DNA of 64,000 nt from an uncultured Clostridia bacterium (GTDB lineage Bacteria; Bacillota; Clostridia; Christensenellales; UBA1242): the NCBI GenBank assembly GCA_944362965.1, contig CALVTR010000006.1:27855-91854 (forward strand), in the 5' to 3' direction. The notes below the pieces were generated by a model. The model searched no databases. It was not told the DNA's origin and was given only the letters and a program-made list of their open reading frames with translations. Positions 1,436 through 21,958 of this stretch are shown in pieces. Made by a program: the position numbers and the translations under genes. Each line of letters starts with the position of its first letter. The stretch's first letter is position 1.

Positions 1436-1525
1436 AAGCTAACTTAAAAATATAATATCATTTTTATTGCCCGAAGATGATTTGTAGGTTTTTAAGTTAA
1501 TTTATTATAAAAGGAGAAAAAGAAT

Positions 1526-2095: not shown

Positions 2096-2116
2096 ACCTT
2101 TTAATGGCATAATTTT

Positions 2117-2146
2117 TAAAGACAGGAAGGGCAACCTGTCTTTTTT
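2117..2146 (+). terminator. Rho-independent terminator
   Basis: AAAGACAGG-aagggcaa-CCTGTCTTT followed by a T-run. Confidence 0.6.
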
Positions 2147-2261
2147 AATTTACATTTTGTCTATATATTTTTAATTTCTAAACAATATCAATAAAAATAA
2201 AAATTTTAATTAAAACAAAAAACTCTCATACTAATTTGTATAAGAGTTTTTATTTAACAAT

Positions 2262-4883: not shown

Positions 4884-4902
4884 TTTTCGCTCCTAGAAAT
4901 TG

Positions 4903-5409: not shown

Positions 5410-5717
5410 TTTAAATTCAGCCTTTTTTCTTCACATCTTTTTTGCCCACGTTTGATTTTGTATTCTATCATCTCGTCAACTTCTTTGCCACCAAACATAA
5501 GTCTTAATGTTTCCGCACAGATAAGCACATCAGCTGTCTCTTCTATAATGTCTTTTTTAACTTTTTCAAGCTTTTCGCTGTTGCCTTTTGCTCGAAAGTA
5601 TTTGCAAAGCTCTTTTGTAAGCTCGCTCATCTCTTCAATGGCAAACACATATTGTGTGTCTTCTCCGAAGACCTTTATAAAATTTTTATAACAGCTCTCT
5701 CGCTCTTCTCTGTCCAT
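5406..5717 (-). CDS. MazG-like all-alpha nucleotide pyrophosphohydrolase family protein (paralog 1)
   Basis: 103 aa. AIEEMSELTKEL...IEETADVLI fits the EExxE...ExxD metal-binding helices of small MazG-like proteins. ATGA overlap with the downstream DUF488 gene. Confidence 0.5.
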   Translation of the reverse strand: MDREERESCYKNFIKVFGEDTQYVFAIEEMSELTKELCKYFRAKGNSEKLEKVKKDIIEETADVLICAETLRLMFGGKEVDEMIEYKIKRGQKRCEEKRLNLK

Positions 5718-5774
5718 CTTTTCTTCCTTTTAATTAAAAAGTTTTAAAAATGATTTGTTCAAATCCTAGCTATT

Positions 5775-6080
5775 TTAACTTTCCATATTTTTCTTTTCAG
5801 CTCTTTTCAAGGCTCTATCTAATTTATATTGTTTGATATCATTGATTTTATCTTGACCAAACATATATGAAAGCTGACCCATATTTATTGACACATCTGC
5901 AATCTCTTCTTGCAAGTTTTCTAGTGCCTTTTGAATTTCAAGTTCATCTCCTGTTGCGACCTTACGCTTATATTTGCATATTGCTTGCAATAATTCGCCC
6001 ATTTCTTCAATAGCACATTGAAATTGTGTTTCTTCGCCAAAAGTATCTAAAAAAATCTTATAATATTCTTCGTCTTTCAT
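5775..6080 (-). CDS. MazG-like all-alpha nucleotide pyrophosphohydrolase family protein (paralog 2)
   Basis: 101 aa. AIEEMGELLQAI...QEEIADVSI; clearly paralogous to 5406-5717. Confidence 0.5.
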   Translation of the reverse strand: MKDEEYYKIFLDTFGEETQFQCAIEEMGELLQAICKYKRKVATGDELEIQKALENLQEEIADVSINMGQLSYMFGQDKINDIKQYKLDRALKRAEKKNMES

Positions 6081-6098
6081 AATTTCTCCCTTTTATCT

Positions 6099-8183: not shown

Positions 8184-8388
8184 AATATCTCCTTAAACTA
8201 AAAAAGAGCATTTTCACTCTATGTATATTATATATAATATATTATAAATAAATATAAGGAAAAAAGCAAGTGATTTGACAAATTAGGCGGAGACTTTAAA
8301 AAAATAAAATGCAAATATTGTGAAAGGTTGTCAAAAAACAAAAAATATGGTATAATCAAGCCTAGTATTACATATTTAAGGAATAACT

Positions 8389-9015
8389 ATGGAAGAAAAT
8401 AAAACAAAACAATCTCAAAAGAAATCTCAAGAGCAAGAAAACAATGATAGTTTGCAAATCACTCAAGAGAAAATAGCAAATACTGACACGTCATCTGTTG
8501 AAGATACTGCAGAAACCAGTTCGCAAACGGTGGCTATACAAGAAAAAGGGGAAGAGAAGCTTTCAAGGAAACAACAATTTATCCAATTTCTAAAGTTCCT
8601 TGCTTTTTCTTTGTCTGCAGGAGTAATTCAAATATTATCATTTTCCGTGCTGTATGAATGGACAGGTTGGCTTGCTTGGTGGCCATCTCATCTCATATCA
8701 GTCACTCTTTCAGTTATTTGGAACTTTACGTTCAACCGTAAATTCACGTTTAAATCTGCAAGCAATGTGCCACTTGCAATGGTGCTTGTTATAATCTATT
8801 ACGCGGCGTATATTCCTGCTTCAGTCTTTGGTGGCGATGCGCTTGAAGCTATAGGGTGGAATGGCTTTTTAGTAGAAGTTATAATGATGGTGATAAACTT
8901 CATCACAGAATTTTTCTGGGACAAGTATATAGTATTCAACGATAAGGTGATAAACAAACTATTAAGAAAAGATAAAAAAGAGAAAAAGGACAGTAAAACA
9001 AATAGCGAAAACTAA
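8389..9015 (+). CDS. GtrA-family membrane protein
   Basis: 208 aa. FIQFLKFLAFSLSAGVIQILSF...NFTFNRKFTFKS is the GtrA-like signature. Has a ~60-aa polar N-terminal extension. Confidence 0.65.
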   Translation: MEENKTKQSQKKSQEQENNDSLQITQEKIANTDTSSVEDTAETSSQTVAIQEKGEEKLSRKQQFIQFLKFLAFSLSAGVIQILSFSVLYEWTGWLAWWPSHLISVTLSVIWNFTFNRKFTFKSASNVPLAMVLVIIYYAAYIPASVFGGDALEAIGWNGFLVEVIMMVINFITEFFWDKYIVFNDKVINKLLRKDKKEKKDSKTNSEN

Positions 9016-9043
9016 AAATAAGAGCGGGTAATCTCACTTGCTC

Positions 9044-9604
9044 TTATTTTTTCTTATCAATAAATGCAATATTGTTGTTTTTAAATTTAACAAGATAGTT
9101 TTGATTGATATTTATTTCGCCTTTAAAAAAGATTTTTCCTTGTGATTGCTTTTTGCTCTCAACTTCCAAGTATTCTATGTCATAGAAGTTATAGCCTAAA
9201 ATATTTAAAAGCGGATTGATATAGAAAAGGCAGTTGTTTATGTATACTATGCCAATAAAGATAAGAATTATAATAAAAAGCACAAAGTCGCAAACATAAG
9301 AAACATCAAGTTGCAGGGCAAAAAGCACGAAGAGCGAAAAATATCCAAGAAAATGCCTGTCAGTAATATTTTCTTTTCTTAATATGATTATTTCTTTTGT
9401 TGTGTCCTTGCAATGATAGATATTTATTATAAGCCCAACAATGCCAAGCACAATAAGTATAATCAGCAAAATAATGTTTAGCGTGTTCAGCACATTAAAT
9501 GTAAGGTTGTCATTTATGATGTCAATGATAAGACGAGTTAAAATCAAAAAATACATTGGCACAAAGGCACTTAAATATAAAAATATATCTTTTATAACTT
9601 TCAT
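9044..9604 (-). CDS. Hypothetical polytopic membrane protein
   Basis: 186 aa with about four hydrophobic segments. No family recognised. Confidence 0.45.
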   Translation of the reverse strand: MKVIKDIFLYLSAFVPMYFLILTRLIIDIINDNLTFNVLNTLNIILLIILIVLGIVGLIINIYHCKDTTKEIIILRKENITDRHFLGYFSLFVLFALQLDVSYVCDFVLFIIILIFIGIVYINNCLFYINPLLNILGYNFYDIEYLEVESKKQSQGKIFFKGEININQNYLVKFKNNNIAFIDKKK

Positions 9605-9681
9605 AAAAATTATTTTGCTTAATTTTTTAAAATTTATTTAAAATGTTTTGTTTTCTTTACATTTTAGGTTAAAATATAATT

Positions 9682-10350
9682 ATGATAATGCTTCCAATAA
9701 TTTTAATAGGCGTTGTGTGCCTCGCAATGTGCGTTCTATACGCGATTTTTCAAGATGTGGGTGAGTGGCAAGGATTTGTTGTAAGATCGCTCACAGGTTT
9801 ATTTTTGCTCATTTATGCGGTAATAACGATAAATTTAACATCAACTATAAATGCATTCTCGCTTTTCATAGCAATAGCTGCGGCTATAACAATGTTCTAT
9901 GAAGGATTGCAAACAAGCAAAATCACAAGCGTGCAGGCAAAGACCATGCTCAGCGGAATTAGTAAGGCACTAGTTTATTTGTCAACTGCACTTGGCATTA
10001 TGTCACTCGCTGAATTTAACGGACTGGCTTTTGCTGGCGGACTACTTCTAGGTCTTGGTCTAGGTCTTATGGTCTGGGCAATCAAGAAATACAAAAATAT
10101 ATCAGATATTCTTTCAACAATCTTTATATTTGCTGCACTTGGGCTTGGCGTAGGCTTCAGCATAAATAGTTTGATCACAACAAGACATTTAATCAGTGCT
10201 ATTGTCACAGCTGTTGCCACATTCTTATTGCTTCTAAGTGAATTTTTAGCACACTTCTTAAAGGAAGGAAAGGCAAATTCAATTACATGCTCAACTCTAA
10301 GAAATATTGCTTTAATAATGCTTGTAGTTTCAATATATCTATTTAGTTAA
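9682..10350 (+). CDS. Hypothetical polytopic membrane protein
   Basis: 222 aa with 6-7 predicted TM helices. A hairpin terminator follows at about 10364-10392. No family recognised. Confidence 0.5.
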   Translation: MIMLPIILIGVVCLAMCVLYAIFQDVGEWQGFVVRSLTGLFLLIYAVITINLTSTINAFSLFIAIAAAITMFYEGLQTSKITSVQAKTMLSGISKALVYLSTALGIMSLAEFNGLAFAGGLLLGLGLGLMVWAIKKYKNISDILSTIFIFAALGLGVGFSINSLITTRHLISAIVTAVATFLLLLSEFLAHFLKEGKANSITCSTLRNIALIMLVVSIYLFS

Positions 10351-10522
10351 TTATAATATAATAAAACTCCTACTATTTTATAGGAGTTTTTTGTTGTAAA
10401 ATACAAGAGAATTTTCTTGCGTAAGATATATTATTTTTTAACAAATTATTATATGATAAGAAAATTTATATGTTTTAAGGGGAGTAATTGACAAAAAATT
10501 ACAAAATAAATACAAAAAAGTA

Positions 10523-10551
10523 TTGACAAAACGACAAAAAGGGCATATACT
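10523..10551 (+). promoter_or_regulatory. Promoter of tRNA-fMet
   Basis: TTGACA (10523-10528), 17-nt spacer, TATACT (10546-10551), 27 nt upstream of the tRNA 5' end. Confidence 0.5.
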
Positions 10552-10578
10552 ATTATTGTGCTTGAAAAAGCTATATAT

Positions 10579-10655
10579 CGCGGGATGGAGCAGCTCGGAA
10601 GCTCGTCGGGCTCATAACCCGAAGGTCGTTGGTTCAAATCCAACTCCCGCAACCA
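10579..10655 (+). tRNA. Initiator tRNA-Met (anticodon CAT), CCA encoded
   Basis: CGCGGGATGGAGCAGCTCGGAAGCTCGTCGGGCTCATAACCCGAAGGTCGTTGGTTCAAATCCAACTCCCGCAACCA. C1/A72 mismatch and GGG/CCC in the anticodon stem are initiator hallmarks. Confidence 0.95.
10611..10655 (+). repeat. attL core (element-supplied 3' part of tRNA-fMet)
   Basis: CTCATAACCCGAAGGTCGTTGGTTCAAATCCAACTCCCGCAACCA, identical to 21454-21498. Confidence 0.85.
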
Positions 10656-10774
10656 TTTATTTATAAGGGCTATAGAGATTTTACTGAATATAGAATTATA
10701 CGTTTTGACTCTCAATTTGACTCTCAAAATTTCAGAAGAATTTATATTAAGCCTTTTAGATGACTAGGTTTTGC

Positions 10775-11164
10775 CTAGTCTTTTTCTTTTTCAATCTCAT
10801 ACATTTTATCTAAAGTATACTTGAATAATTTTTTATATACACCTTTAGATGCATCCATACAATTATTTAATTTAAGTTTTAATTTATCCCATTTACTATC
10901 TGCATTATTATCTTTATATTTTTGACTCTTAGTCATACGAGCTAATATTGGCATTACATATACTTGCAATTTTATATCATTATTCAATAATTCTTTGCTA
11001 GTAAAAGGGCATATTCCGTTATGCTCAAGATAGAACAACAATGCTTGTAAATATTCCATACGTTTTTTCTCTTTAGCAATCTTTGCCTCTAGAGCATAAA
11101 TAATACCACAAGAATTTGAAATTGCCTTATCAATATCTTCTATATCAATATATTTATTTTTCAT
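10775..11164 (-). CDS. Hypothetical protein (element)
   Basis: I prefer the start at MKNKYIDIEDI (ATG 11164), which has an AAAGGAAAGG RBS; the track start 11209 would overlap rep. No family recognised. Confidence 0.5.
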   Translation of the reverse strand: MKNKYIDIEDIDKAISNSCGIIYALEAKIAKEKKRMEYLQALLFYLEHNGICPFTSKELLNNDIKLQVYVMPILARMTKSQKYKDNNADSKWDKLKLKLNNCMDASKGVYKKLFKYTLDKMYEIEKEKD

Positions 11165-11180
11165 TTTTTCACCTTTCCTT

Positions 11181-12260
11181 TTAAAATGGCAAATCATCAT
11201 TATTGCCACTATACAAAGTAAGTTCTATTTGCTCTGCTTGTTTATTGTATCTATCAAAAACTATTTTTGCTCTTCCGTATTTGTCATACTCAAGCACTTG
11301 TTTAATACGTTTTTTACGACCATAAGGTTTTTGCTCACTCTGTGGTATATCTTCATATATAGTTTCACGTTCCACAAATATATCAGTAGGGGAGTTTATA
11401 CGTATAACTTTACTTAAACGTCTAACAAAGCCGTTATATTGACTTATATTCTCTTCCTGTTCTTGCTTATATAACTCTTTATAGTGAAAGTTAGATATTA
11501 TATAAACTTTTGTAAAACAAGCCTGTCCTAGAAAGTTAAGCCCACGAAGTTTAACTGGTAAAAAGTCAAGCAAACGGTTCATAAACTGTATATTGAATTG
11601 ACCAACGCCTTTAAACTCATCTATGACTAATATATCTTCACCTGCATAGCCTGTAAATGCTGAATTATCAAACGTATCAACATAGAAATAGTTTTCATTA
11701 CGTATTAGGTCACGAACATAAGTTGTTTTGCCTGAACCACTAGGTCCATATATGTATATCACTTCAACGTCACGTTCTTGCTTTTTAAAAAGCTCAGATT
11801 TTTTAAGTGTTCTTAATTTATCAAGCTTATTAAATTCTTTTAAAAATAAGCTAGGGTATAATTCACGAAGTTGTAAATCACTTGCACCGCTATCAATCAA
11901 TTCATAGAAATCTTTTAAATCAGTTCTTTCGCCTTTCTCAGTAAATGTGCCATCTTCATAAGGTCCTGATATACGTGTTTCAGTTTTAGAGCAATAATCA
12001 CGGCATTGAATATTTGAGCCTTGTGCTTTTTCAATATGGGCAGTAGGGAAGTATCCTTTAATAGTGCTAAAACGTTTACTAATAGTAAAAACTATATATA
12101 TTTGAAAATGAATAGTTCCTTTTTCTTCGCCTTTTTCACGTTGAAAGATGTAATATTTAAAATGCTCTAAATTCTTTAAATAATTTTGCATTTCTTCGTC
12201 TGTTTCTTTAGGGTTATTTATTGTTAAAACCCATCTACGTGCTTGTGAATTTTCTTCCAT
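11181..12260 (-). CDS. rep: Rolling-circle replication initiator, circovirus/CRESS-type HUH endonuclease fused to an SF3 helicase
   Basis: 359 aa with ordered motifs: RRWVLTINNP (motif I), GTIHFQIYIVF (motif II, HUH-type), DYCSK (motif III, catalytic Tyr), GPSGSGKT (Walker A), LVIDEF (Walker B), YIISNF (motif C). Confidence 0.85.
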   Translation of the reverse strand: MEENSQARRWVLTINNPKETDEEMQNYLKNLEHFKYYIFQREKGEEKGTIHFQIYIVFTISKRFSTIKGYFPTAHIEKAQGSNIQCRDYCSKTETRISGPYEDGTFTEKGERTDLKDFYELIDSGASDLQLRELYPSLFLKEFNKLDKLRTLKKSELFKKQERDVEVIYIYGPSGSGKTTYVRDLIRNENYFYVDTFDNSAFTGYAGEDILVIDEFKGVGQFNIQFMNRLLDFLPVKLRGLNFLGQACFTKVYIISNFHYKELYKQEQEENISQYNGFVRRLSKVIRINSPTDIFVERETIYEDIPQSEQKPYGRKKRIKQVLEYDKYGRAKIVFDRYNKQAEQIELTLYSGNNDDLPF

Positions 12261-12293
12261 GATATACTCCTATTTATATCAAGACTTTGACGC

Positions 12294-12399
12294 GCGTCAA
12301 GGTATGCGTCAAGATGCGTCAAGGTTAAATTAAAAAATTAAAATGCTATAAGCCTTTATTTATAAGGTTTTTTGATTTTTAGGCGTCAATGCGTCAAGG
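12294..12399 (-). repeat. Iterons GCGTCAA(G/T), five copies, between the origin stem-loop and the rep start
   Basis: Copies at 12294-12302, 12306-13, 12316-24, 12383-90 and 12391-99. The last copy forms part of the stem. Confidence 0.7.
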
Positions 12400-12432
12400 T
12401 TCAAGGGTAATACTAACCTTGAACCTTGTCGC
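12391..12432 (-). promoter_or_regulatory. Putative rolling-circle origin: stem-loop presenting the nonanucleotide TAGTATTAC
   Basis: Stem 12395-12406 CAAGGTTCAAGG pairs with 12417-12428 CCTTGAACCTTG, extendable to 16 bp with one mismatch. Loop 12407-12416 GTAATACTAA reads TTAGTATTAC on the rep (minus) strand. Confidence 0.75.
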
Positions 12433-12660
12433 GTATCCAACTTGTTGGGCTTGGCGAGCCATCGCCCAACAAGTCAAGTTGTATCGAAGAAACAACCTTC
12501 TCATGCGGATTTTTAAAACTTGGGCTCTGCCCAAACCCGCCAATACTCTAGAGTATTGGATGAGCTTTCTTCGCTCGACCGCTAGGCAACTCCGGAACGG
12601 GTGTTCCGAAGCAGGGCAAGTATGAGCGAAGTGACCCGCTTGTCAAGTAAAAATTTGCAT
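12433..12660. other. GC-rich hairpin cluster (candidate complementary-strand origin or packaging signal)
   Basis: CTTGTTGGGC (12441-50) / GCCCAACAAG (12464-73). Outer stem CGAAGAAA (12485-92) / TTTCTTCG (12566-73) encloses TTGGGC-tct-GCCCAA (12520-34) and the 20-nt perfect palindrome CCAATACTCTAGAGTATTGG (12540-59). CGGAAC-gggt-GTTCCG at 12593-12608. Confidence 0.5.
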
Positions 12661-12670
12661 TTATCTCCCG

Positions 12671-13045
12671 TTAGGCATAAACGACAAATTTTTTCTTGAC
12701 AAGCTGCTGTATCTCTTCGATTGAGTTCTTTGCTAGTATACACCTTTTATTTTTCTTCAGAAGTCCGCAAAAAGCTTCTTCTTGCGGAACTTCTGATTTT
12801 TCTGATTGTTTCTTCATGGCTTTCAGCCACAGTTGTTTCCTTCGATACAATGAAGGTATTTTATTGAGTTGACGTCGCATATCTTTCCAGACATATTTAC
12901 GAAATCTTTTTAAATGCTTATTATCTATAAAGTCCTCAGTATCTAAAGTAAGAGCAAAAGTTGCTGAATATTGACTAAAAACCTTTTGCAACAACTTATT
13001 CCTAGTAAAATCTAATTTTGGTTCTTCTTGTATTTTCTGAAACAT
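12671..13045 (-). CDS. Hypothetical basic protein (element)
   Basis: 124 aa. Its start overlaps the stop of the upstream ATPase gene (TAATG). No family recognised. Confidence 0.5.
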   Translation of the reverse strand: MFQKIQEEPKLDFTRNKLLQKVFSQYSATFALTLDTEDFIDNKHLKRFRKYVWKDMRRQLNKIPSLYRRKQLWLKAMKKQSEKSEVPQEEAFCGLLKKNKRCILAKNSIEEIQQLVKKKFVVYA

Positions 13046-13863
13046 TATGCCGCCTTCCTTTTTTGATAGAAATTATCAGGAAGTTCGTCGTCAACTTCCT
13101 TGAGATATTTAACCACAGCTTCAAAGTTATCGTCCGTAGGTTCTGCATATTTTAAATCAAAGTCTTCATCTAAATGACCTTCATAGAATTTAGGCTTGCA
13201 ATTTTGACTGTCGTATAAGGCAAAAACGTTATAATCAGCAACAACAGTCTCTTCAGTATAACAAGTTTTATCTTTCTTACCACTAGCCATATATCTATCA
13301 AATAAAGCACTATTATCAATATGTCTTATAGTCCAAGTAAGCTTGTCAACCTTGCCATTTTCATTTTTATGTATATTTAATTTAGCGATTTCAATAAAAC
13401 TAGCAAGTTCCCGGATATTCACGTCTATAAGCATAGGACGTTGAGTATCGAGAAATATATCTATGTTGTCATGACCATGCTGTTCATACCAACGTGATTG
13501 CCAGTCAGGGAAATACATGCTCATTCTTGAATTAAGATATTTTTGTGCTTCAGTGATACCGATAACTTCATAGGGCAGGTTAAAGTGTGTTTTGACATAA
13601 TTATTTGCGAAGCCTAATCTAAAAGGATTAATACGCCTAGAATAACGACGACTATACCCAAACTTTTTAAATGCAATATCATAATTTGCTGCCACACAAT
13701 GGGTAGGTATTGTTTTTATGTTTTTAAAACCATTAAGCTTTTTATAAAGAACTTCACGCTGCATAGCTCTATTACGCACTTTATCATAAGCATAAGTATT
13801 TAATATATGGGTCAAAAAACAAGTTTTCCCTGTTCTTGGTGGAGCAAATATTATTGTTATCAT
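13045..13863 (-). CDS. Zot/pI-like P-loop ATPase (filamentous-phage assembly ATPase family)
   Basis: MITIIFAPPRTGKT (Walker A), VIGITEAQ (Walker B-like), EQHGHDNIDIFLDTQRPMLIDVNIRELA (Zot-type HRH-G-D-ii-TQ block). I prefer ATG 13863 with an AAGGAAA RBS; the track begins at TTG 13884. No C-terminal TM segment is seen. Confidence 0.65.
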   Translation of the reverse strand: MITIIFAPPRTGKTCFLTHILNTYAYDKVRNRAMQREVLYKKLNGFKNIKTIPTHCVAANYDIAFKKFGYSRRYSRRINPFRLGFANNYVKTHFNLPYEVIGITEAQKYLNSRMSMYFPDWQSRWYEQHGHDNIDIFLDTQRPMLIDVNIRELASFIEIAKLNIHKNENGKVDKLTWTIRHIDNSALFDRYMASGKKDKTCYTEETVVADYNVFALYDSQNCKPKFYEGHLDEDFDLKYAEPTDDNFEAVVKYLKEVDDELPDNFYQKRKAA

Positions 13864-13877
13864 TTTATTTATTTTCC

Positions 13878-13979
13878 TTGACAAATTTATTTTTTTAGCA
13901 TATACTAATTATGTCAAGATTTTGACAGCGCAGTTTATTCTGCGACAGGTATGAACGGAATATTTTTCCGTTCTTTTTT
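13878..13979 (+). ncRNA. Candidate short plus-strand (antisense) transcript: consensus promoter plus intrinsic terminator
   Basis: TTGACA (13878-83), 17-nt spacer, TATACT (13901-06). Hairpin GAACGGAA (13953-60) / TTCCGTTC (13966-73) followed by T6. Predicted RNA of ~65 nt. No expression data. Confidence 0.25.
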
Positions 13980-14397
13980 ATTTTCTACCTTTTAACTTTC
14001 TAACTCTCATTCTATTTGACTTAGAATTTTTAGAAGTCTTAAATAAAATTCTCTTTATTTGAGATATTTCATTTTTATTAAAATCATAAGAACTTTTATT
14101 TTCTAAAAAATACTTATTTCTCTTTATTGGCTTATTTCTAAAATCACGAGTTTCAACAAAAGGTTTTATTTTTGATTTGCCTTGTCTATATGTTTTTATA
14201 GGAATGCCTTTATTAGACATAGTAAGCTTAACAACTGCTAGTTCGTTATTCCTATTACTATCAACAACTACAACTCGTCTATAATAACCTTTTACGTTAG
14301 GTTTTCTATAATTTTCAGCGCCATAGAAATAATTATCTTTTGTTTGAAAAGTTCTTCCATTAGGTATCTTTATAGATATATTTTTCTTTCTTGACAT
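13978..14397 (-). CDS. Highly basic hypothetical protein (possible nucleic-acid-binding or structural protein)
   Basis: 139 aa, K/R-rich throughout. No family recognised. Confidence 0.5.
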   Translation of the reverse strand: MSRKKNISIKIPNGRTFQTKDNYFYGAENYRKPNVKGYYRRVVVVDSNRNNELAVVKLTMSNKGIPIKTYRQGKSKIKPFVETRDFRNKPIKRNKYFLENKSSYDFNKNEISQIKRILFKTSKNSKSNRMRVRKLKGRK

Positions 14398-14467
14398 ATT
14401 AGCTCCATTAAAAGCTTAAAAATAAAGGCAAAAATATATCTTGCCTTTATTTTTGCTTAAGTATTAT

Positions 14468-14686
14468 TTATTTAGTTTCTTGCTTAGGTTCATCGTCAAT
14501 TACAAGGCCAAGTCTAAGCAAGTTATCAGTTGATGGGAAAAACATAATTTCTTTACCATTTTTTCCCTTAACTTTGAAGCATGCATAAGGCTTTCCACTG
14601 TCTTTGCCGACACCTTCAAATACTTCCATGCTCTCAACTACTGATTTTAATTCTTTTGCTAAATTTTCTCTTTTAATAATTTTCAT
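14468..14686 (-). CDS. Small hypothetical protein (element)
   Basis: I prefer the start MKIIKRENL (ATG 14686) preceded by AAAAAAGGAGAAAAGG. 72 aa. Confidence 0.45.
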   Translation of the reverse strand: MKIIKRENLAKELKSVVESMEVFEGVGKDSGKPYACFKVKGKNGKEIMFFPSTDNLLRLGLVIDDEPKQETK

Positions 14687-14830
14687 TTTCCTTTTCTCCT
14701 TTTTTATTATTTGATTACTTACTTCAGGGCCCTTTGAAATAAGTATCTGGTGAAGCAAGAGCAATAGGAGAGAAATACTCTTGCAACTGGTAGCAGGTTA
14801 CTTTTAAATTGTTGTAGCCTGCATAAACAA

Positions 14831-15043
14831 TCAATTTTCTATAGCAGATATAACAAGTGCTTTCTTAATACGTTTATACTCACTGCCTGTCCAAAAGATA
14901 TAGTAAAATTCAGTGGAACGACAAAACATAACATGCTTAATAATTTCTTTTATCTTATCAAATGAATTATTCCACTTGATTTTTATAGACCTTTCATAAG
15001 TTACGTCATAATATCGACCTAAAAGAAAACTAAATTTTTCCAT
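14831..15043 (-). CDS. Small hypothetical protein (element)
   Basis: 70 aa, tightly packed after the LRR gene. Confidence 0.4.
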   Translation of the reverse strand: MEKFSFLLGRYYDVTYERSIKIKWNNSFDKIKEIIKHVMFCRSTEFYYIFWTGSEYKRIKKALVISAIEN

Positions 15044-15045
15044 AA

Positions 15046-16089
15046 TTAAATACCCATTTCAACATTAGACAAAATAAGGTCAGTCACGTTGACACCGTAA
15101 ATGTTAGAGCCATAATTAGTAGTAAAATAATCGATATATGATTGATACATAGTCTCTGGAACATATACATAGTCAATTAAACTATTTAAATATGCATCAT
15201 AAAAATCAACTATTTGCGTTTCATTTGAAATGATAAGATTATGTATAGTTGAACCTAAAAACGCAGTAGAAGATAGCTCTATAACATTTTCAGGTAAAAC
15301 AAGTGACGTCATTTCTAAAGTATAATATGCACCATCTATTGCAGTTACTGTTGATGGTATAGTTGTGTTGCTGCAAGCTACAACCAAAGTATTTGTTGCA
15401 GTTTCAATAATAGCATTGCAGTTTTCTCTGCTATCATAAACAGAATTATCAAGTGATACTACTATTGTTTCAAGTGAAAGGCCACTTCCAATCACTACTT
15501 CTCCAATACTTGTCACACTTGATGGAATATATAGCTCTAACAAACTATCACAATTTAGAAAAGCTCTGCTGCCTATAGTCTCTAAACCTTCATTTAAAAT
15601 AACACTTTCAAGATTAAAACACGTATCAAAAGCATTATTTTCAAGTTCGACAATAGTAGTTGGCAATATTACTGATTTTAGTGTTTCTGAATAATTAAAA
15701 ATATTTTCACCTATAACTGTCACTTGATAGTCATCACCTTCAATAAAGTTGCCTTCGTCATCGATTGAATATGAAGAAGGAAGTTCAACATAAGCATCAT
15801 TACCAAAATAACGAACTATTTTATTCTCATAAAACTCATAGTCAGAAACATTGCAAACATAAGTTATTTTTCCCGGTTCGTCAGTTTCTCCTGTATCTTC
15901 ACTTGGCTCTTCTGGCTCTTCAGTTTCTCCTGTATCTTCGCTAGGATTATCTTCATCCGGTTGTATAGTCTCTTCTTCAGCTATGCCAAACCAAGTATTG
16001 ACTATACTAGGCTCAATTAAGTAGGTTATACCAACACCTGCTACTAAAATTAGAATTAAAGAAAATATAATTAAATAAGCTTTTTTCAT
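15046..16089 (-). CDS. Membrane-anchored BspA-type leucine-rich-repeat surface protein
   Basis: N-terminal TM (MKKAYLIIFSLILILVAGVGITYLI), acidic PEDTGETEEP repeats, then LRR_5-like repeats (IGENIFNYSETLKSVILP, LENNAFDTCFNLESVIL, IGSRAFLNCDSLLELYIPSSVTSIG). Confidence 0.65.
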   Translation of the reverse strand: MKKAYLIIFSLILILVAGVGITYLIEPSIVNTWFGIAEEETIQPDEDNPSEDTGETEEPEEPSEDTGETDEPGKITYVCNVSDYEFYENKIVRYFGNDAYVELPSSYSIDDEGNFIEGDDYQVTVIGENIFNYSETLKSVILPTTIVELENNAFDTCFNLESVILNEGLETIGSRAFLNCDSLLELYIPSSVTSIGEVVIGSGLSLETIVVSLDNSVYDSRENCNAIIETATNTLVVACSNTTIPSTVTAIDGAYYTLEMTSLVLPENVIELSSTAFLGSTIHNLIISNETQIVDFYDAYLNSLIDYVYVPETMYQSYIDYFTTNYGSNIYGVNVTDLILSNVEMGI

Positions 16090-17504
16090 TCTACCACCTC
16101 AACTTTTAACATGCCGGCATTTATAGTATCCCAAGCAAGCAAATCAATCGTTCCGTCACTATTTATGCCGAAAGAGAAATTAAACAAAATATCATTATAC
16201 GTTTCATTTATGTAATAAATATTTGAATTTGATTTTTCAAAAGTAAATGTTTGTTCATCGTTATATGTAAGAGTTATCACTCCGTCTATTTCACTAAGTG
16301 TGGCTGACCAAACTTCACGATTAAAACCATCAGTTCGAATTAGTGTCCAAACATTTGAATTAAGAGTAGTAATATACTCAACTTCTTCAGTTGAAATAAT
16401 ATCTACAGAATATGTATCTACGTCAATGTTCGGATAAGACATATACCAAAAATTAGTCATTGTCATACTGCCATTAGCAAAGGTATATTCGACCTTAAAA
16501 TATGTTTCTGCATCTTCAACTTCAAGTAAATTTAAATAATTTTCTTGAATAAAACTTGTTGGAATATTAACCGTAACAATGTTGTCTTCTATAGTAGAAA
16601 AATTTGTTAAAGATTCAGATATATCTATAAAATTAGTTAAATCTGAATTTAAAATTTCAATGCTATTTATAGTAGAACCTGTTATATTCATATAAGAATT
16701 AATAACAGGATAAGTCTCTCCGCTTGTATTTGCTGAAGAATAATAAGTTCTAACTGCAGCATTTACATTGTATGTCTCAGTTGTCTCTTCAAAGACTGCG
16801 TAAAGAGTGGTATCATTAGGGAAGAAATATCCTTGAAGCTCAATAGGTGTAGAGCCGTCAAGTGACCAACCTGTAAAGTTATAACCTATAAGCTTAGGGT
16901 CTTCTACATAGTGGTCAAATGAGCTATCAGCACTTGTAACTACTACGTCGTAATTATTATCATTTACTTTAAATGTAACTATACTTTGTCCTTCAAAGTT
17001 ATATGACGCAACAAGCTCTTCATAATATGTAACTGTATCTTCTAACGTTGAAACCGTGCTTTGAAGAGTAGATACTTGGCTTTCTAAAGTTGAAATAGTA
17101 TCTGCATATTCCGTTACCAAATCTTCGCTATCTTCTAAGTCAGATTGAAGCTGCGCTATCTGAGATTGCAAGCTTGAAATAGTAGTGTTTAAACCTTCAA
17201 TAGTTGATTGAAGCTCAGATATAGTTTCTTGTAAGTCTGCAATAGTTTCTGCATCTGATGCTGTTTGCTCATCTTTGCTGTCAAGCTGAAATTCTAATTC
17301 AACAATGTTGCCTTGCAAATTTTCAACTTGTATAATTAAATTATCTATTGTAGTTTCAAGCTGTGTTATATATGCTTGCGTATCTTGGCTATTCAATTCT
17401 TGATATTTATCATTGACATTTTTATACATTATGCCAAAGACAATACCGCAAATATCACCTGCCATAAACAATATAATCATTAAATAACCTAAAAATTTCT
17501 TCAT
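16086..17504 (-). CDS. Membrane-anchored coiled-coil protein with a Listeria-Bacteroides-type repeat
   Basis: N-terminal TM, heptad-like LQS/LES repeats (aa ~40-165), then GYNFTGWSLDG...TTLYAVF. ATGA overlap with the downstream gene. Confidence 0.55.
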   Translation of the reverse strand: MKKFLGYLMIILFMAGDICGIVFGIMYKNVNDKYQELNSQDTQAYITQLETTIDNLIIQVENLQGNIVELEFQLDSKDEQTASDAETIADLQETISELQSTIEGLNTTISSLQSQIAQLQSDLEDSEDLVTEYADTISTLESQVSTLQSTVSTLEDTVTYYEELVASYNFEGQSIVTFKVNDNNYDVVVTSADSSFDHYVEDPKLIGYNFTGWSLDGSTPIELQGYFFPNDTTLYAVFEETTETYNVNAAVRTYYSSANTSGETYPVINSYMNITGSTINSIEILNSDLTNFIDISESLTNFSTIEDNIVTVNIPTSFIQENYLNLLEVEDAETYFKVEYTFANGSMTMTNFWYMSYPNIDVDTYSVDIISTEEVEYITTLNSNVWTLIRTDGFNREVWSATLSEIDGVITLTYNDEQTFTFEKSNSNIYYINETYNDILFNFSFGINSDGTIDLLAWDTINAGMLKVEVVE

Positions 17505-17515
17505 GTTTTTTCTCC

Positions 17516-18853
17516 TTAACTATCTCTAAATAGTTCGAACGGCTTTTTGATAAGCCACCATAAACCTTTTAAAAAATAACAAAAACCTAAACATATGTAT
17601 TTTATAACCATTACAATAACTTTAAATATTAAAGGTAAAACACTTGGTGCTAAAATTGCAATTACTGCGATTATTGCTATAGTGACAACTATACCAACAA
17701 TAGATGATATCAATTTATCTAACCAATTTTCATTATCAGGCTTATTGTCACCTGTTTGTTTGTTATCAACAACTCCCAAATTATAAGTAATACCATCATT
17801 TTCAAACGTTAATTCTAAAATCGTAATATTTTCAACTTTTGTCCAATAAGTTAATACTGCTCCTACCAAAGGCGAAATAGTAAATTCTGTTTCAGTGAAT
17901 CTCAAAACCCAGTCTTTGCTTTTTACAGCATCTTCAATTTCTTCTTTTAAATCTACGGATTCTACAAACTCATTTGAGCTTTGTATTCGTTCCCAAGAAT
18001 ATTTCTTTACAAACACAGCTCCAGAACTAACACTAGCAACATCTGTATAATTTAAATTTATTGAGATAGGATCAGAGTATTCTCCGTTTATATTCTCGTT
18101 TAACATTGGAACTGTTATATATTCAACTTTGGCTGAAAGTAACTTATCAATTGGCTTATCTGTCGAAAATGCTACATATTGGCTATCACAAGCATTTGGA
18201 TCAAGAAAAAATCCACTTTCATATCTAATAAACCCTATATATTTATCAACTATATTTATTGTATCAGTAGTTATATATGCGTAATAGACTTTTCCATCAA
18301 CAGTCATGCAAGTCCATTCCTGACCAACCTTATAAGAACATTCACTTATTGTATTCCCTGTATTTTCTTCAGGTAATTCATCAACTCCATCTATAAATTT
18401 ACGAAATATTGATGAAATAACATAATATCTAACAGAATTTTGTTCAACAGTTAAATCATCAACCTTATATTTTTGTAAAGCACCCGAAGAATTTATATAT
18501 GTTAAAGTATAATTATTAAAATCTAAATTATTATCAATTCCTTTTGAAATATTTATACTAGTTGCATATTTTATAGCACTAGGCTGATAAACATAGATAA
18601 ACAATTCTTTATCTTCACTTTCAGCTATTTGAATTACTTGTAAAGAATAATTGTCAGAAATAATAGGGTAATTATCAATGCTAAAATTTTCATCTTTTTG
18701 CAAATCGTCAAGAACATTTGAATATTCAGTTTCTGCTGCGTAAACGTTAGTTGTTGCCGACGACATAGGCAGTAAAGAAAAAAGACAGAGTATAAGCATG
18801 AAAAAATACGCTAAATCAAATATTTTAAATTTACTTTTATTTTTCCTTGTCAT
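17516..18853 (-). CDS. Secreted protein with C-terminal membrane anchors (candidate adsorption or spike protein)
   Basis: 445 aa. Signal peptide ending TNVYA/AETEY, large ectodomain, two or three C-terminal TM helices. Confidence 0.5.
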   Translation of the reverse strand: MTRKNKSKFKIFDLAYFFMLILCLFSLLPMSSATTNVYAAETEYSNVLDDLQKDENFSIDNYPIISDNYSLQVIQIAESEDKELFIYVYQPSAIKYATSINISKGIDNNLDFNNYTLTYINSSGALQKYKVDDLTVEQNSVRYYVISSIFRKFIDGVDELPEENTGNTISECSYKVGQEWTCMTVDGKVYYAYITTDTINIVDKYIGFIRYESGFFLDPNACDSQYVAFSTDKPIDKLLSAKVEYITVPMLNENINGEYSDPISINLNYTDVASVSSGAVFVKKYSWERIQSSNEFVESVDLKEEIEDAVKSKDWVLRFTETEFTISPLVGAVLTYWTKVENITILELTFENDGITYNLGVVDNKQTGDNKPDNENWLDKLISSIVGIVVTIAIIAVIAILAPSVLPLIFKVIVMVIKYICLGFCYFLKGLWWLIKKPFELFRDS

Positions 18854-18905
18854 ATATTCCGCTCCTTCTCTGTCATCTTTCTTTATTGGCTATGGATTTT
18901 TAAAT

Positions 18906-19199
18906 TTAAGCTACAATCACTACATTTGAATAATTGTTAGCTATGTTTTGAAGGTCAACAACTTCAACTTCGTCATCTTCTGTGATATCTGTTTCAGTAT
19001 CAGCTTGCTCTTCATCATTTACTGTATCGTCAGTGTCATCAATAACTTCTTCAACTTCAGTTCCCCATGATTTCCACTCATCAACTAGTGAGCGGTCATT
19101 AACTGAAGCCATAACTAAAGAAGTCACAATGAAAACTAAAGCTACAAAAATGACAAAGCATACTATTGATGAGATTGCTATCTTTGTTTTTTTAGACAT
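18906..19199 (-). CDS. Small protein with an N-terminal signal/anchor and an acidic C-terminal part
   Basis: 97 aa: MSKKTKIAISSIVCFVIFVALVFIVTSLVMA, then a D/E/T-rich region. Confidence 0.5.
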   Translation of the reverse strand: MSKKTKIAISSIVCFVIFVALVFIVTSLVMASVNDRSLVDEWKSWGTEVEEVIDDTDDTVNDEEQADTETDITEDDEVEVVDLQNIANNYSNVVIVA

Positions 19200-19214
19200 T
19201 GCTCTTTGCTCCTT

Positions 19215-19466
19215 TTATTTAGATTTTTTCTTTTTGCAATTCGACTTATATGCTTTTGCATTGTCAGATCTTGCTGTTAGGTAACCGCTACGATATGCCT
19301 TTTGTGTGTCAGTTAAACGAATAGGTTTGCCATATTTATTTTTCTTGACAACATGATCATTGGTTGCATGAATACCTTTCTTAAGTTCTGCAGCATATTT
19401 GCGACCTTTTTCAGCAGGGTTTAACAAAGTTACTTTCTTACCACGTCTATTTGTTACAACTCTCAT
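19215..19466 (-). CDS. Small basic hypothetical protein
   Basis: 83 aa, K/R-rich. Overlaps the upstream ORF by 20 nt. Confidence 0.45.
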   Translation of the reverse strand: MRVVTNRRGKKVTLLNPAEKGRKYAAELKKGIHATNDHVVKKNKYGKPIRLTDTQKAYRSGYLTARSDNAKAYKSNCKKKKSK

Positions 19467-19686
19467 TTCTTACTCCTTTTAACCCATCGGCTACACCTTT
19501 ATCAAAAATTTGAATAAACTCATTTGCTGATATCAACATTTCAGTCCATTCGTTTTTGCAACGATAATAGACACGATAGGCAATATTAAAAGTATTAAGT
19601 GCGTTAATCTTAGGCTTTAACTCTTCAATGCCGTTGCACTCATAAATTTTGTTGTTCGACACAATCATAAACTCTTTTTCTTCCAT
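19447..19686 (-). CDS. Small hypothetical protein, first gene of the leftward operon
   Basis: 79 aa with an AAAGGAG RBS. Divergent from the XRE repressor gene. Confidence 0.45.
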   Translation of the reverse strand: MEEKEFMIVSNNKIYECNGIEELKPKINALNTFNIAYRVYYRCKNEWTEMLISANEFIQIFDKGVADGLKGVRNESCNK

Positions 19687-19700
19687 TTTAAACTCCTTTT

Positions 19701-19769
19701 TAGTTAATTTTTAACTATTCATACTTATATTATATTCAAATATAGAATAATGTCAACTAAATTTTAGTT
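19701..19769. promoter_or_regulatory. Candidate operator palindromes in the divergent switch region
   Basis: TAGTTAAtttTTAACTA (19701-19717) and AACTAAAtTTTAGTT (19755-19769), between the leftward operon and the XRE gene. Confidence 0.4.
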
Positions 19770-19825
19770 ACTTATTGAATATTTTTTAAAAAAATTTATA
19801 ATGTTATAAATAAAAGGAGTTAAAC

Positions 19826-20140
19826 ATGAAAATAAAAGAACTAAGACAACAATTAAACAAAACACAAGAAGAAATAGCAAAAATATTAAACATTTCACAA
19901 AGTAATTATAGCAAGTATGAACGAAATGAAATTGAGCCAGATATTAAAACACTAAAAAAAATAGCCGACTACTTTGACGTCAGCTTAGATTTCTTGTGCG
20001 GGAGACCAAGACCTTATGATTTACCTTCCACAACAACTTCAGGACAAAAAGAAGCAATAAATTTAATATTGCAACTAAATGAAATCAACACTATAAAAGC
20101 AATCTCATATTGTGCCGGGTTACTTGCAGGGCAAAACTAA
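19826..20140 (+). CDS. XRE-family helix-turn-helix repressor
   Basis: LRQQLNKTQEEIAKILNISQSNYSKYERNEIEPDIKTLKKIADYFDVSLDFLCG is a classic HTH_3 domain. Confidence 0.8.
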   Translation: MKIKELRQQLNKTQEEIAKILNISQSNYSKYERNEIEPDIKTLKKIADYFDVSLDFLCGRPRPYDLPSTTTSGQKEAINLILQLNEINTIKAISYCAGLLAGQN

Positions 20141-20309
20141 CTCGGCACTATAACTCATAATTTCTAATCAATCAAAAGAAAACTACTTAAAGGAGAAATT
20201 ATGAATAAAAAAATTATTGAAACTTTTTTAAAATATAAGCATTCAACAAAACAAACTACTAGAACAAGCAACAAATTGTAATATTGCAATAACAGAATTT
20301 TTAAAAGGC

Positions 20310-21362
20310 TTGATAGATTCTTCTGAAATAGATACTGAAATAAAAGGAGATATTTATCAAGATATGAAATATAAAGGACATAAAATTGAAAAACGAAAAG
20401 ACGGAAGATGGCAAGCACGAATAAGAGAAAACGGGAAACAACATTTTGTTTATGCAAAATCTCAAATTGAGTGCTTGAATAAATTAAAAGAATTATACAA
20501 AGACAAACCAAAACTTATAAAACCGCAAATGAAACTTTTTGAAGCTTGGGAATATTGGTATAACAAATATAAAAAACCCTTAATAAGAGAAGATACCTTA
20601 AAAAACATTCGTAGCGTTTTCAAAAATCAATTATCAATTCTTTTAGAAAATAAAAATTTAAAAGATATAAATTCATTAGATTTTAACCTTGCTATAAAAA
20701 AAATAAATAAACCTAGAATGAAAGAATATGCTTCACAATATATTAAAGATTTTTTAAAATCACTTTACAAAGAAAAACTAATCAAGTATGACATTACTGA
20801 TGAAATAAAATCATATCATAGCCCAAGAAAAGAAGGTAATTCACTCACAATCGAACAAAGAAAAATCTTAGTTGAAAAATCATATTTAATAGAAAACGGG
20901 GAGATGTTTAGATTTTATTTATTTTCAGGAGTCAGGCCAGCTGAAATATTTTTAATAAAAGATACTGATATTGAAAAAGAGTTTATACATATACCAGGAA
21001 CAAAAACGGAAAAATCAGATCGTTATATACCAAGATTTAAACAATTAGACGAAGTACTAGAGAAGTTGAAAGACATAAAAGGACCACTTTTCAAAATTAG
21101 CGAAACAACTAGAAAAAGACGAATTTATGAATTAAGACAATTATGCGGTTTTCACTTTAATGTGAAAGATTTACGAACAACATTTGCAACAATGTGTGCA
21201 GAGAATGGAGTTCAACAAAATGTTATTGCAAAATGGCTAGGACATACTAACGTTACAACTACAAATAAATATTATATTAAAGTTCTAAATGACTATGAGC
21301 GAGAGCAAATAAAGAATTTAGAACATAAAATTGACTCTCAAATTGACTCTCAAAACTGCTAA
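20310..21362 (+). CDS. int: Tyrosine-type site-specific integrase
   Basis: N-terminal arm-binding-like KRKDGRWQARIRENGKQ. Catalytic region has GVRPAE (Arg), DLRTTFAT (Arg), WLGHTNVTTTNKYY (His, Tyr). Start is uncertain: TTG 20310 or ATG 20367. Confidence 0.85.
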   Translation: MIDSSEIDTEIKGDIYQDMKYKGHKIEKRKDGRWQARIRENGKQHFVYAKSQIECLNKLKELYKDKPKLIKPQMKLFEAWEYWYNKYKKPLIREDTLKNIRSVFKNQLSILLENKNLKDINSLDFNLAIKKINKPRMKEYASQYIKDFLKSLYKEKLIKYDITDEIKSYHSPRKEGNSLTIEQRKILVEKSYLIENGEMFRFYLFSGVRPAEIFLIKDTDIEKEFIHIPGTKTEKSDRYIPRFKQLDEVLEKLKDIKGPLFKISETTRKRRIYELRQLCGFHFNVKDLRTTFATMCAENGVQQNVIAKWLGHTNVTTTNKYYIKVLNDYEREQIKNLEHKIDSQIDSQNC

Positions 21363-21453
21363 AAAACGGGGAAATGGCAAAAATAAAACACTATATAAAG
21401 TGTCTTTAAATTTAAAAATACTTATATATAGTGTTTTTGCCATTAAAACCGCT

Positions 21454-21498
21454 CTCATAACCCGAAGGTCGTTGGTTCAAATCCAACTCCCGCAACCA
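21454..21498 (+). repeat. attR core (displaced original 3' part of tRNA-fMet)
   Basis: 45 nt identical to 10611-10655. Confidence 0.85.
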
Positions 21499-21892
21499 TG
21501 AAAAAGGTTGGGCAATATGCCCAACTTTTTTATTGTGGCAAAAAAGTTAATTTACGACCTTCGGGTTATATCGAGCATTTTAAATTTTTTTTTCATAAGA
21601 ATAAATAAACAAAAAGCACGGCTGAATAAATAGACAAAATAGACGCGAGATATAATCTCGTTTTCGGTCGTTGGTTCAAATCCAACTCCCGCAACCATAA
21701 AAAGTTGGGCGTTTTGCCCAGCTTTTTTATTGCGGCAAAAAAGTTAATTTACGACCTTCGGGTTATATCGAGCATTTTAAATTTTTTTCATAAGAATAAA
21801 TAAACAAAAAGCACGGCTGAATAAATAGACAAAATAGACGCGAGATATAATCTCGTTTTCGGTCGTTGGTTCAAATCCAACTCCCGCAACCA
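21499..21892 (+). repeat. Two ~195-bp tandem units, each ending in a 32-nt tRNA-fMet 3'-end fragment
   Basis: GGTCGTTGGTTCAAATCCAACTCCCGCAACCA at 21666-21697 and 21861-21892. Each unit also holds a terminator-like hairpin and an inverted anticodon-arm fragment TTACGACCTTCGGGTTAT (21552-69, 21749-66). Confidence 0.8.
21507..21531 (+). terminator. Displaced native tRNA terminator
   Basis: GTTGGGC-aatat-GCCCAAC followed by T6, immediately after the attR tRNA fragment. Confidence 0.6.
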
Positions 21893-21958
21893 TAAAAAGT
21901 TGGGCGTTTTGCCCAGCTTTTTTATTTAATAAAAAGCGGACTTGTATAGCCCGCCTAT

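Follow-up and report, generated by a model that had tools for sequence, protein, structure and literature searches.

A tRNA-integrated element of a Clostridia bacterium that joins a pCRESS2/circovirus-type replication module to a Zot-like ATPase and is probably of filamentous-phage type

Introduction

Can a circovirus-type replication module reside in an intact bacterial prophage of filamentous-phage type, and if so, is the combination new? The question is raised by a 10.8-kb element of an uncultured Clostridia bacterium, found in a stretch of 64,000 nucleotides of contig CALVTR010000006.1 (the window). The element encodes a Rep of the CRESS type (circular, single-stranded DNA encoding a Rep), composed of an HUH endonuclease and a superfamily 3 (SF3) helicase, together with a Zot-like ATPase, a tyrosine integrase and an XRE-type repressor. 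An earlier note on the window had described a temperate, integrase-bearing rolling-circle element in tRNA-fMet, with a lysogeny module and a surface-protein block, and had not recognised its gene combination as a described phage type. Our analysis supports the description. The claim of novelty has to be given up, since the pairing of Zot with a CRESS-type Rep is already on record, and the element is a further, well-documented instance of it. We judge it to be probably an intact, mobile, temperate element of filamentous-phage (Tubulavirales-like) type that carries a pCRESS2/circovirus-type replication module. Features of the window are listed in Table 1, and loci fetched for comparison carry L numbers.

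Insertion site and mobility of the element

ARAGORN called a tRNA-Met(CAT) gene at 10579-10655 on the plus strand, which also gave an Rfam tRNA match of 61 bits. Its sequence bears the hallmarks of an initiator: C1 and A72 are left unpaired (C1xA72), and the anticodon stem is closed by three G:C pairs (GGG:CCC). The 3ʹ part of this tRNA recurs as a perfect direct repeat at 10611-10656 and 21454-21499, bracketing an insert of 10,843 bp. The repeats were recognised as such in the earlier note, at a length of 45 nt; the full length is 46 nt.

One metagenome contig (L039), the attB allele of the same species, was matched by a search pattern built from the 5ʹ half of the tRNA, the core and the flank to its right. 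This contig is 99.6% identical to window positions 1415-10656 and then continues directly with positions 21454-21731 at 99.3%, exactly 10,843 bp being absent relative to the window. The closest database relative of the ATPase (86% identity) was found on several contigs, among them L008, an 89-93% related element assembled as a circle (11,741 bp with a 75-nt terminal overlap). In L008 the att core occurs once, flanked on either side by paired TTGACTCTCAA repeats, and the 5ʹ half of the tRNA is missing. L008 is the attP form, and it comes from a relative with a 93% identical Int, not from the window strain. Relatives on three further contigs (L005-L007) are integrated at the same tRNA and flanked by an identical 45-nt core. 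The earlier note had named an empty site and a circular junction as the signs of mobility to look for, and both were found. A circle of 10,843 bp was integrated by the tyrosine integrase into the gene for the initiator tRNA, at its 3ʹ end, and the insertion rebuilt the tRNA. With an integrase that gave the expected profile match, att repeats equal to the tRNA 3ʹ end, and both attB and attP forms, the element belongs among the tRNA-targeting temperate elements that use a tyrosine integrase.

The TTGACTCTCAA repeats lie 50-100 nt inside attL and attR (10705/10717 and 21331/21343) and are probably arm-type integrase sites. The two P-arm repeats, at 21331-21353, fall in the last 11 codons of int (…KIDSQIDSQNC), so these putative sites double as coding sequence.

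A pCRESS2-type Rep with its cognate origin

The Rep matched Pfam Viral_Rep (4.4e-15) and RNA_helicase (4.2e-9), both above the gathering threshold, and its best match in the PDB was the Rep of porcine circovirus 2 (PCV2; 7LAR, 4e-26). Its translation holds RRWVLTINNP, HFQIY, YCSK, GPSGSGKT, LVIDEF and IISN; all Rep and ATPase motifs quoted in the earlier note are present, and its assignment of a CRESS/circovirus-type Rep stands. In blastp comparisons the Rep scored 190 and 171 bits against two pCRESS2 Reps, 118 and 95 bits against pCRESS3 and 67 bits against pCRESS1. The corresponding identities were 40.7% to pCRESS2 WP_036328238, 36% to the second pCRESS2 Rep, 29-31% to pCRESS3 and 26% to pCRESS1. 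By these pairwise scores, the Rep is closest to the pCRESS2 group, and the motifs and domains, the proximity to pCRESS2 and a cognate origin were all found as for a CRESS-type HUH+SF3 Rep of that group. The likeness to PCV2 extends to the order of motifs I-III, the two Walker motifs (A and B) and motif C, and to the origin, as PCV2 has a (T)AGTATTAC nonamer in a stem-loop. The iterons of porcine circoviruses likewise lie beside the stem-loop. Unlike PCV2, however, the window element is a 10.8-kb prophage of a bacterial chromosome with 15 genes, an integrase and a Zot-like ATPase. Members of Cressdnaviricota have a genome of 2-6 kb with a Rep and a jelly-roll capsid, whereas no capsid-protein family was matched here.

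Genes orf124 and rep are separated by 411 nt, and the origin lies within this gap on the minus strand, which is the coding-sense one. Its loop holds the circovirus/nanovirus nonanucleotide, TAGTATTAC, and two proximal TTGACGC iterons follow directly after the stem, down to approximately position 12383. Four of the seven CTTGACGC matches in the window are confined to the 105 nt at 12294-12398, with about one match expected over all 64 kb. In each relative that carries this Rep, a nonamer stem-loop with a differing stem lies upstream of rep. The same TAGTATTAC occurs in stem-loops with five different stem sequences (L001, L003, the L004-L011 group, L012 and the window; Table 1), and each of these five variants, judged by inspection, is perfectly complementary. 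In L021, whose Rep is 47% identical, a variant nonamer, TAAGTGTTAC, sits in an 11-bp stem followed by iteron-like GTCGC/GTCAC repeats. The iterons co-vary with lineage, being TTGACGC in some relatives and TTGTCGC in others. Comparison of the sequences shows the origin to be conserved wherever a relative carries this Rep, two GenBank inoviruses among them, and the changes in its stem to be compensatory.

When the 401-nt intergenic stretch at 12270-12670 was folded as single-stranded DNA (ssDNA), it reached -72.1 kcal/mol (z = -5.9), and none of 100 shuffled sequences folded as well. A long hairpin of different sequence stands at the same position in L005, L011, L012 and L021. By analogy with the intergenic region of Ff phages, the hairpin cluster may serve as a complementary-strand origin and/or packaging signal. 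It is very likely that the element is mobile and has a functional CRESS-type replicon.

A Zot-like ATPase of an abundant family

The translation of the ATPase holds PPRTGKT, GITEAQ and EQHGHDNIDIFLDTQRP. It matched PHROG 197 ('Zot-like') at 5e-10; searched singly against the PDB it found the Zot domain of N. meningitidis (2R2A) only, and the profile of its family found 2R2A at 3.6e-7 with no competitor. A member of its clade in a GenBank inovirus record (bajarodino virus 12, L002) passes Pfam Zot itself with 33.3 bits. At the profile level the ATPase is Zot-like, in agreement with the earlier note.

The family comprises 826 clusters at 90% identity and 273 clusters at 50% identity in 1.84 billion proteins, nearly all of 240-300 amino acids (aa). 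It was found in 28 species-representative genomes, mostly of uncultured Clostridia or Christensenellales; among its hosts are Candidatus Onthoplasma faecipullorum and Pumilibacter intestinalis CLA-AA-M10, the latter in culture. A transmembrane (TM) segment is absent in 106 of the 108 full-length representatives. The threonine at the Walker B position (IGITEAQ) is kept in the close family, with serine in L002, and the wider relatives have D, T, S or Q there. An inactive ATPase was considered as the reading of this Thr-for-Asp change and not adopted, as the change is conserved across a highly conserved family. The basic orf124 lies beside the ATPase gene in all 31 loci whose sequence spans both genes. 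The papers found on inoviruses and Christensenell* held incidental mentions only and no description of this ATPase family. As a separate observation, the ATPase shows unusual conservation among the loci (L002-L038), at 66-86% identity, whereas the genes beside it have diverged to 25-45%.

Sibling elements with another Rep

A CRESS-type Rep was found on only 10 of the fetched ATPase loci, namely L004-L009, L011, L012, L021 and the window's own lineage. Another 24 loci (L013-L020, L022-L025 and L027-L038) keep the ATPase-orf124 pair without a CRESS-type Rep, with ATPases that are 66-75% identical. Such siblings (L013-L038), from Christensenellales and other Clostridia, resemble the window element in carrying bas83-like, p445-like or leucine-rich repeat (LRR)/coiled-coil proteins in the same order. 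In the four that were examined (L015, L016, L019 and L034), a Rep-sized gene of approximately 340 aa lies downstream of orf124. PF23343 (REP_ORF2-G2P), the classical inovirus/plectrovirus Rep, was matched in all three that were scanned; L016, L019 and L034 thus differ from the window element in having a G2P/ORF2-type instead of a CRESS-type Rep. The lysogeny genes vary as well, L015 having a serine recombinase and L019 a LexA-like repressor in place of the tyrosine integrase and XRE. The sibling in the cultured P. intestinalis CLA-AA-M10 (L034; NZ_CALPCH010000024, 5000-12400) has the same ATPase, orf124, p445 and a G2P-type Rep.

Exchange of replication modules has been described for filamentous phages (PMC6668415, PMC13595969). 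From these comparisons, the window's lineage appears to have swapped its replication module, and would have arisen when a plasmid-derived CRESS-type Rep and its origin replaced the G2P-type Rep of the siblings.

Relatives already on record

Roux et al. 2019 (PMC6813254, Fig. 5b legend and Suppl. Table 5) list an inovirus protein family, iPF_00203, of 56 sequences as 'RCR + helicase' with Viral_Rep, and note that its S3H motif is one typically seen in ssDNA viruses of eukaryotes. The groups pCRESS1-9 were defined by Kazlauskas et al. 2019 (PMC6668415), who found most of the Reps of pCRESS1-3 in elements integrated by a tyrosine integrase, mostly in tRNA genes; they called the elements plasmids and stated that none of them encodes a viral structural homologue. 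The supplement of that paper nevertheless contains a pCRESS2 element of Hungatella hathewayi (CZAZ01000001) with Zot (CUP05435.1) beside Viral_Rep. The pCRESS2 elements of Clostridia share with the window element the Rep group (up to 40.7% identity), the tyrosine integrase, the tRNA genes and the att repeats. They differ from it in that most carry FtsK-like translocases and single-stranded DNA-binding proteins (SSBs) and were read as plasmids.

Two GenBank genomes filed under Inoviridae, bajarodino viruses 30 and 74 (PQ006165 and PQ006121), combine Zot with an HUH+SF3 Rep that is 32-34% identical to the window Rep. Like the window element, they have a TAGTATTAC stem-loop upstream of rep and are small genomes with genes mostly on one strand. 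Unlike it, they have canonical small hydrophobic coat proteins, the Zot of virus 30 has a TM segment, and no integrase is annotated in either record. Their ATPases were not detectably similar to that of the window in tblastn and phmmer searches. With iPF_00203, the Hungatella element and these two viruses, the combination is preceded by earlier records.

Bajarodino virus 12 (PQ006185, L002), also filed under Inoviridae, was deposited as a complete circular virus genome of 9.8 kb from faeces. It resembles the window element in its TM-less Zot (3e-21), p445 homologue, XRE-type repressor, tyrosine integrase and lack of a small TM coat open reading frame (ORF). It differs in that the ATPase identity is only about 27-30% and a CRESS-type Rep could not be found. 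Nor was any other replication gene found in this genome, whose G+C-rich, unannotated 1.5 kb (1979-3532), where rep might be expected, held no long ORF. A literature search for 'bajarodino' found no paper.

Membrane and candidate coat proteins

Four membrane-anchored proteins are encoded upstream of the ATPase gene in the operon. The protein p445 is a candidate pIII/pVI-like minor coat or adsorption protein by its predicted architecture, and its homologue in bajarodino virus 12 was matched at 4e-53. An identical p445 is present in ERZ28615321. Its model gave no PDB match at E ≤ 0.001, the top entries being generic beta sandwiches. The best viral fold match was weak, namely ORF1 of Acholeplasma phage L2 (E = 1.4e-4, probability 1.0), with TM-scores of 0.21 and 0.16 and 13% identity. 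The sole candidate for the major coat protein, by its position and TM helix, is tm97; a similar 69-aa protein takes its place in L019, and tm97 matched neither CoatB nor another coat family. The BspA-type LRR protein is a candidate receptor-binding or surface protein. A hydrophobic ORF of 44 aa (19764-19898, minus strand) was considered as a coat protein and rejected, being antisense to the start of xre.

What kind of element is it?

The inovirus description sensu Roux et al. 2019 comprises a small genome, mostly co-oriented genes and a replication initiator; here the genome has 10.8 kb, one strand carries 13 of its 15 genes, and there is a Rep with its origin. The pI/Zot-like ATPase without similarity to other ATPase types agrees with it as well. 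The main reason for placing the element with the filamentous phages is that its siblings pair the same ATPase with a G2P-type Rep. We lean towards the view that it makes filamentous-phage-like particles.

Several observations weigh against that placement. The ATPase scored 19.1 bits against a Pfam Zot cut-off of 20.3, which is 1.2 bits short, and its Walker B aspartate is replaced by threonine. It has no hydrophobic or TM segment, whereas a genuine pI is required to carry one or two (PMC6813254). The element has no canonical small pVIII-like coat ORF that we could find, and tm97 has a reverse polarity and a 60-aa acidic tail compared with the canonical pVIII. In IMG/VR the single ATPase had no match, and the family alignment found two weak loci. 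A circular assembly such as that of L008 may also stem from tandem copies.

Under the filamentous-phage reading, the XRE repressor would hold the consensus promoter that drives the 13 co-oriented genes. After excision, Rep would bind the TTGACGC iterons and nick the coding-sense strand at TAGTATT/AC, within the loop that the 12-bp stem bears. The nick would start rolling-circle synthesis leading to single-stranded circles, for which the hairpin cluster just upstream of the origin could provide complementary-strand priming and/or packaging. The soluble Zot-like ATPase would then, with the membrane proteins (tm97, p445, LRR and coiled-coil), export or assemble the DNA without lysis.

Alternatively, the element might be an integrated rolling-circle plasmid or an integrative mobilisable element without a virion, like the pCRESS1-3 elements of Kazlauskas et al. 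2019. Rep would then replicate the excised circle or act as a relaxase, the ATPase would be a DNA translocase or segregation ATPase, and the membrane proteins would be adhesins or serve surface exclusion. The Rep is indeed closest to pCRESS2, a group most of whose members were described as plasmids sitting in tRNA genes, equipped with a tyrosine integrase, an FtsK-like ATPase, an SSB and in some cases a surface-exclusion protein, and as lacking any homologue of viral structural proteins; the soluble ATPase, the want of a canonical coat protein and the near absence of the ATPase family from IMG/VR point the same way. However, the ATPase matches Zot only and not FtsK/SpoIIIE or TcpA, and the Pfam, PHROG and NCBIfam scans matched no FtsK/TcpA translocase, MOB relaxase or SSB. 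The pairing of the same ATPase with a G2P-type phage Rep in the siblings also argues against a plasmid, as do the deposition of bajarodino virus 12 as a complete circular faecal virus genome and the conservation of p445 in it. We therefore consider a plasmid unlikely.

It is quite improbable, in our estimate, that the element is instead a virus of Gram-positive bacteria whose particle is bounded by a membrane and not filamentous (plasmavirus- or pleolipovirus-like), the ATPase loading the DNA and vesicles studded with the element's membrane proteins releasing it. Such a virus would suit the four membrane-anchored proteins, the soluble ATPase and the missing pVIII-type coat. The comparison is with Acholeplasma phage L2 (Plasmaviridae), which provides the best viral fold match of p445 and is likewise a temperate element of approximately 12 kb with an integrase. 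The family of L2 has a double-stranded DNA genome in an enveloped particle. The p445 match is countered by its low TM-scores and identity, and sequence and profile comparison of all element proteins with L2 matched Int only, for which reason the plasmavirus idea is kept at low probability. No Zot-like ATPase or HUH Rep was detected in L2, whose record annotates origins with putative DnaA-binding sites and no Rep gene. The hosts differ too, being Clostridia, assumed to be walled, in the one case and Acholeplasma laidlawii in the other. A. laidlawii lacks a cell wall. A decaying, immobile prophage remnant fixed in the chromosome deserves hardly any credence: decayed pseudo-tRNA fragments do lie just downstream of attR, but that array is also present in the empty allele L039, both att copies are identical, and all ORFs are intact and tightly packed. 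The empty allele at 99.6% flank identity, and relatives found as a circle and in other genomes, speak against a remnant as well.

For an element that is probably of filamentous-phage type, the combination bears on a wider issue. Eukaryotic CRESS-DNA viruses have been traced back to bacterial elements with pCRESS-type Reps, which were described as plasmids devoid of viral genes; in the present case a pCRESS2-type Rep and a circovirus-style TAGTATTAC origin stand in a complete, mobile, phage-like element of which the attB, attL/attR and attP forms are documented. The traffic of replication modules between plasmids and ssDNA phages can be studied on it as a concrete example. A bolder proposal, which we find doubtful, is that the TM-less Zot-like ATPase of about 270 aa marks an undescribed virus lineage of family rank, its members small and temperate, its hosts gut Clostridia (Christensenellales, Pumilibacteraceae and others), with a particle lacking a pVIII-type coat and a pCRESS2-type Rep in a true virus. 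Catalogues of viruses would for the most part have missed it. The particle could have a coat protein of reversed polarity (tm97) or be non-filamentous. If the proposal were true, a pCRESS2-type Rep in a true virus would weaken the view of bacterial CRESS-like Reps as plasmid-only. The family is abundant and gut-associated, as its 90% clusters attest, and barely covered by IMG/VR and NCBIfam; its member in cultured P. intestinalis could make the biology testable.

Gene layout and other features of the locus

The earlier note had placed int and the XRE repressor on the plus strand, as we did, and had counted 15 ORFs on the minus strand; at a minimum of 70 aa we count 13, closely packed. A perfect 12/12 sigma-70 consensus promoter (TTGACA-16-TATAAT; 19756-19729, minus strand) faces this 13-gene operon, and back to back with it a 10/12 promoter (19775-19802, plus strand) faces xre.

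Table 1. Coordinates of the element's features in the window, with the origin stems of relatives
Feature	Position	Strand	Remarks
Initiator tRNA-Met (CAT), integration target	10579..10655	+	Intact at attL; ARAGORN, Rfam, initiator signatures
attL core	10611..10656	+	46-nt direct repeat, tRNA 3ʹ part; 100% identical to 21454-21499
Two TTGACTCTCAA repeats, candidate arm-type integrase sites, Pʹ arm	10705..10727	+	Repeat family D4/D6; same repeats flank the core in circular L008
orf144, last operon gene	10775..11209	-	Probably 129 aa from 11164; no Pfam/NCBIfam family
Rep, HUH endonuclease + SF3 helicase, pCRESS2/circovirus type	11181..12260	-	Viral_Rep, RNA_helicase, PCV2 Rep, pCRESS2 identity
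Distal iterons	12285..12325	-	Three direct CTTGACGC copies and one inverted, directly upstream of the rep ribosome-binding site
Plus-strand origin	12395..12428	-	Perfect 12-bp stem CAAGGTTCAAGG/CCTTGAACCTTG, loop T-TAGTATTAC; nonamer 12415-12407
Origin stem, L004-L011			5ʹ arm AGGTTCGGGG, 3ʹ arm CCCCGAACCT
Origin stem, L012			5ʹ arm CAAGGTTCAGGG, 3ʹ arm CCCTGAACCTTG
Origin stem, bajarodino virus 74 (L003)			5ʹ arm CCCCTAAAGG, 3ʹ arm CCTTTAGGGG
Origin stem, bajarodino virus 30 (L001)			5ʹ arm GACACTTAACCCG, 3ʹ arm CGGGTTAAGTGTC
G+C-rich hairpin cluster 5ʹ of the origin	12437..12640	-	Candidate complementary-strand origin and/or packaging signal
orf124, basic (+15)	12671..13045	-	Adjoins ATPase; no known family in Pfam, PHROG, NCBIfam
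Zot/pI-like P-loop ATPase, 272 aa	13045..13863	-	No TM segment; Walker A FAPPRTGKT, Walker B IGITEAQ
orf139, very basic (+30, 139 aa)	13978..14397	-	No family match in Pfam, PHROG, NCBIfam
orf98 and orf70, two small ORFs	14468..15043	-	orf98 probably 72 aa, start 14686; orf70 at 14831-15043
Membrane-anchored acidic BspA-type LRR protein	15046..16089	-	LRR_5 5e-25; N-terminal TM, net charge -50
Membrane-anchored coiled-coil protein	16086..17504	-	Weak Listeria-Bacteroides repeat; fused with LRR protein in sibling L019
p445	17516..18853	-	Signal peptide, all-beta ectodomain, C-terminal membrane helix hairpin; AlphaFold2 pLDDT 85.7
tm97, 97 aa	18906..19199	-	Short basic N-terminus, one TM helix, acidic tail; gene-VIII position, just before p445
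bas83, basic (+20) core protein	19215..19466	-	Conserved across wider element family; AlphaFold2 pLDDT 93
orf79, first gene of long operon	19447..19686	-	From ORF list
Divergent promoter/switch region	19729..19802	.	12/12 promoter toward operon, 10/12 promoter toward xre
XRE/Cro-CI-type repressor	19826..20140	+	HTH_3 2.6e-20 (Pfam); PHROG 8 and PHROG 3
Tyrosine integrase	20310..21362	+	Phage_integrase 1.9e-11 (Pfam); PHROG 1 3.5e-43; start likely 20364
attR core	21454..21499	+	46-nt repeat; empty allele L039 joins 10656 straight to the sequence after the attR copy

Domain searches of the element proteins in Pfam, PHROG and NCBIfam found no relaxase, FtsK, capsid, terminase or lysis domains, and NCBIfam had no family for any of 10 element proteins. 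The confident model of bas83 gave no PDB match below E = 2.8. Homologues of orf144 were found in L004 and L012 only. The very basic orf139 may be a DNA-binding protein; its stretch RRVVVVDSNRNNELAVVKL resembles a PemK/MazF-type SH3-like motif by impression only, with no supporting family match.

Just past attR, at 21502-21926, lies a tandem of units of approximately 195 bp that share a perfect repeat of 145 nt. A unit contains, as a pseudo-tRNA 3ʹ fragment, exactly the last 32 nt of tRNA-fMet, besides a terminator hairpin and the anticodon-arm part of the att core in inverted orientation (CGACCTTCGGGTTAT). The contig of the empty-site allele L039 includes at least the first unit before it ends, so the array is independent of the element; older integrations may have left the units behind as scars, or they may be decoy att sites.

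Apart from the tRNA, the Rfam scan of the element gave only a sub-threshold match to the Staphylococcus sRNA S774 at 10504-10598 (39.9 bits against a gathering threshold of 48), which overlaps the tRNA promoter and the tRNA 5ʹ end and is probably due to chance. The chromosomal flank near the tRNA in two relatives (L005, 14505-15062; L006, 12781-13338) encodes a homologue of KwaA (Kiwa defence). An ORF of 186 aa (9044-9604), about equally far from the tRNA in the window, had no Pfam match at E ≤ 0.001.

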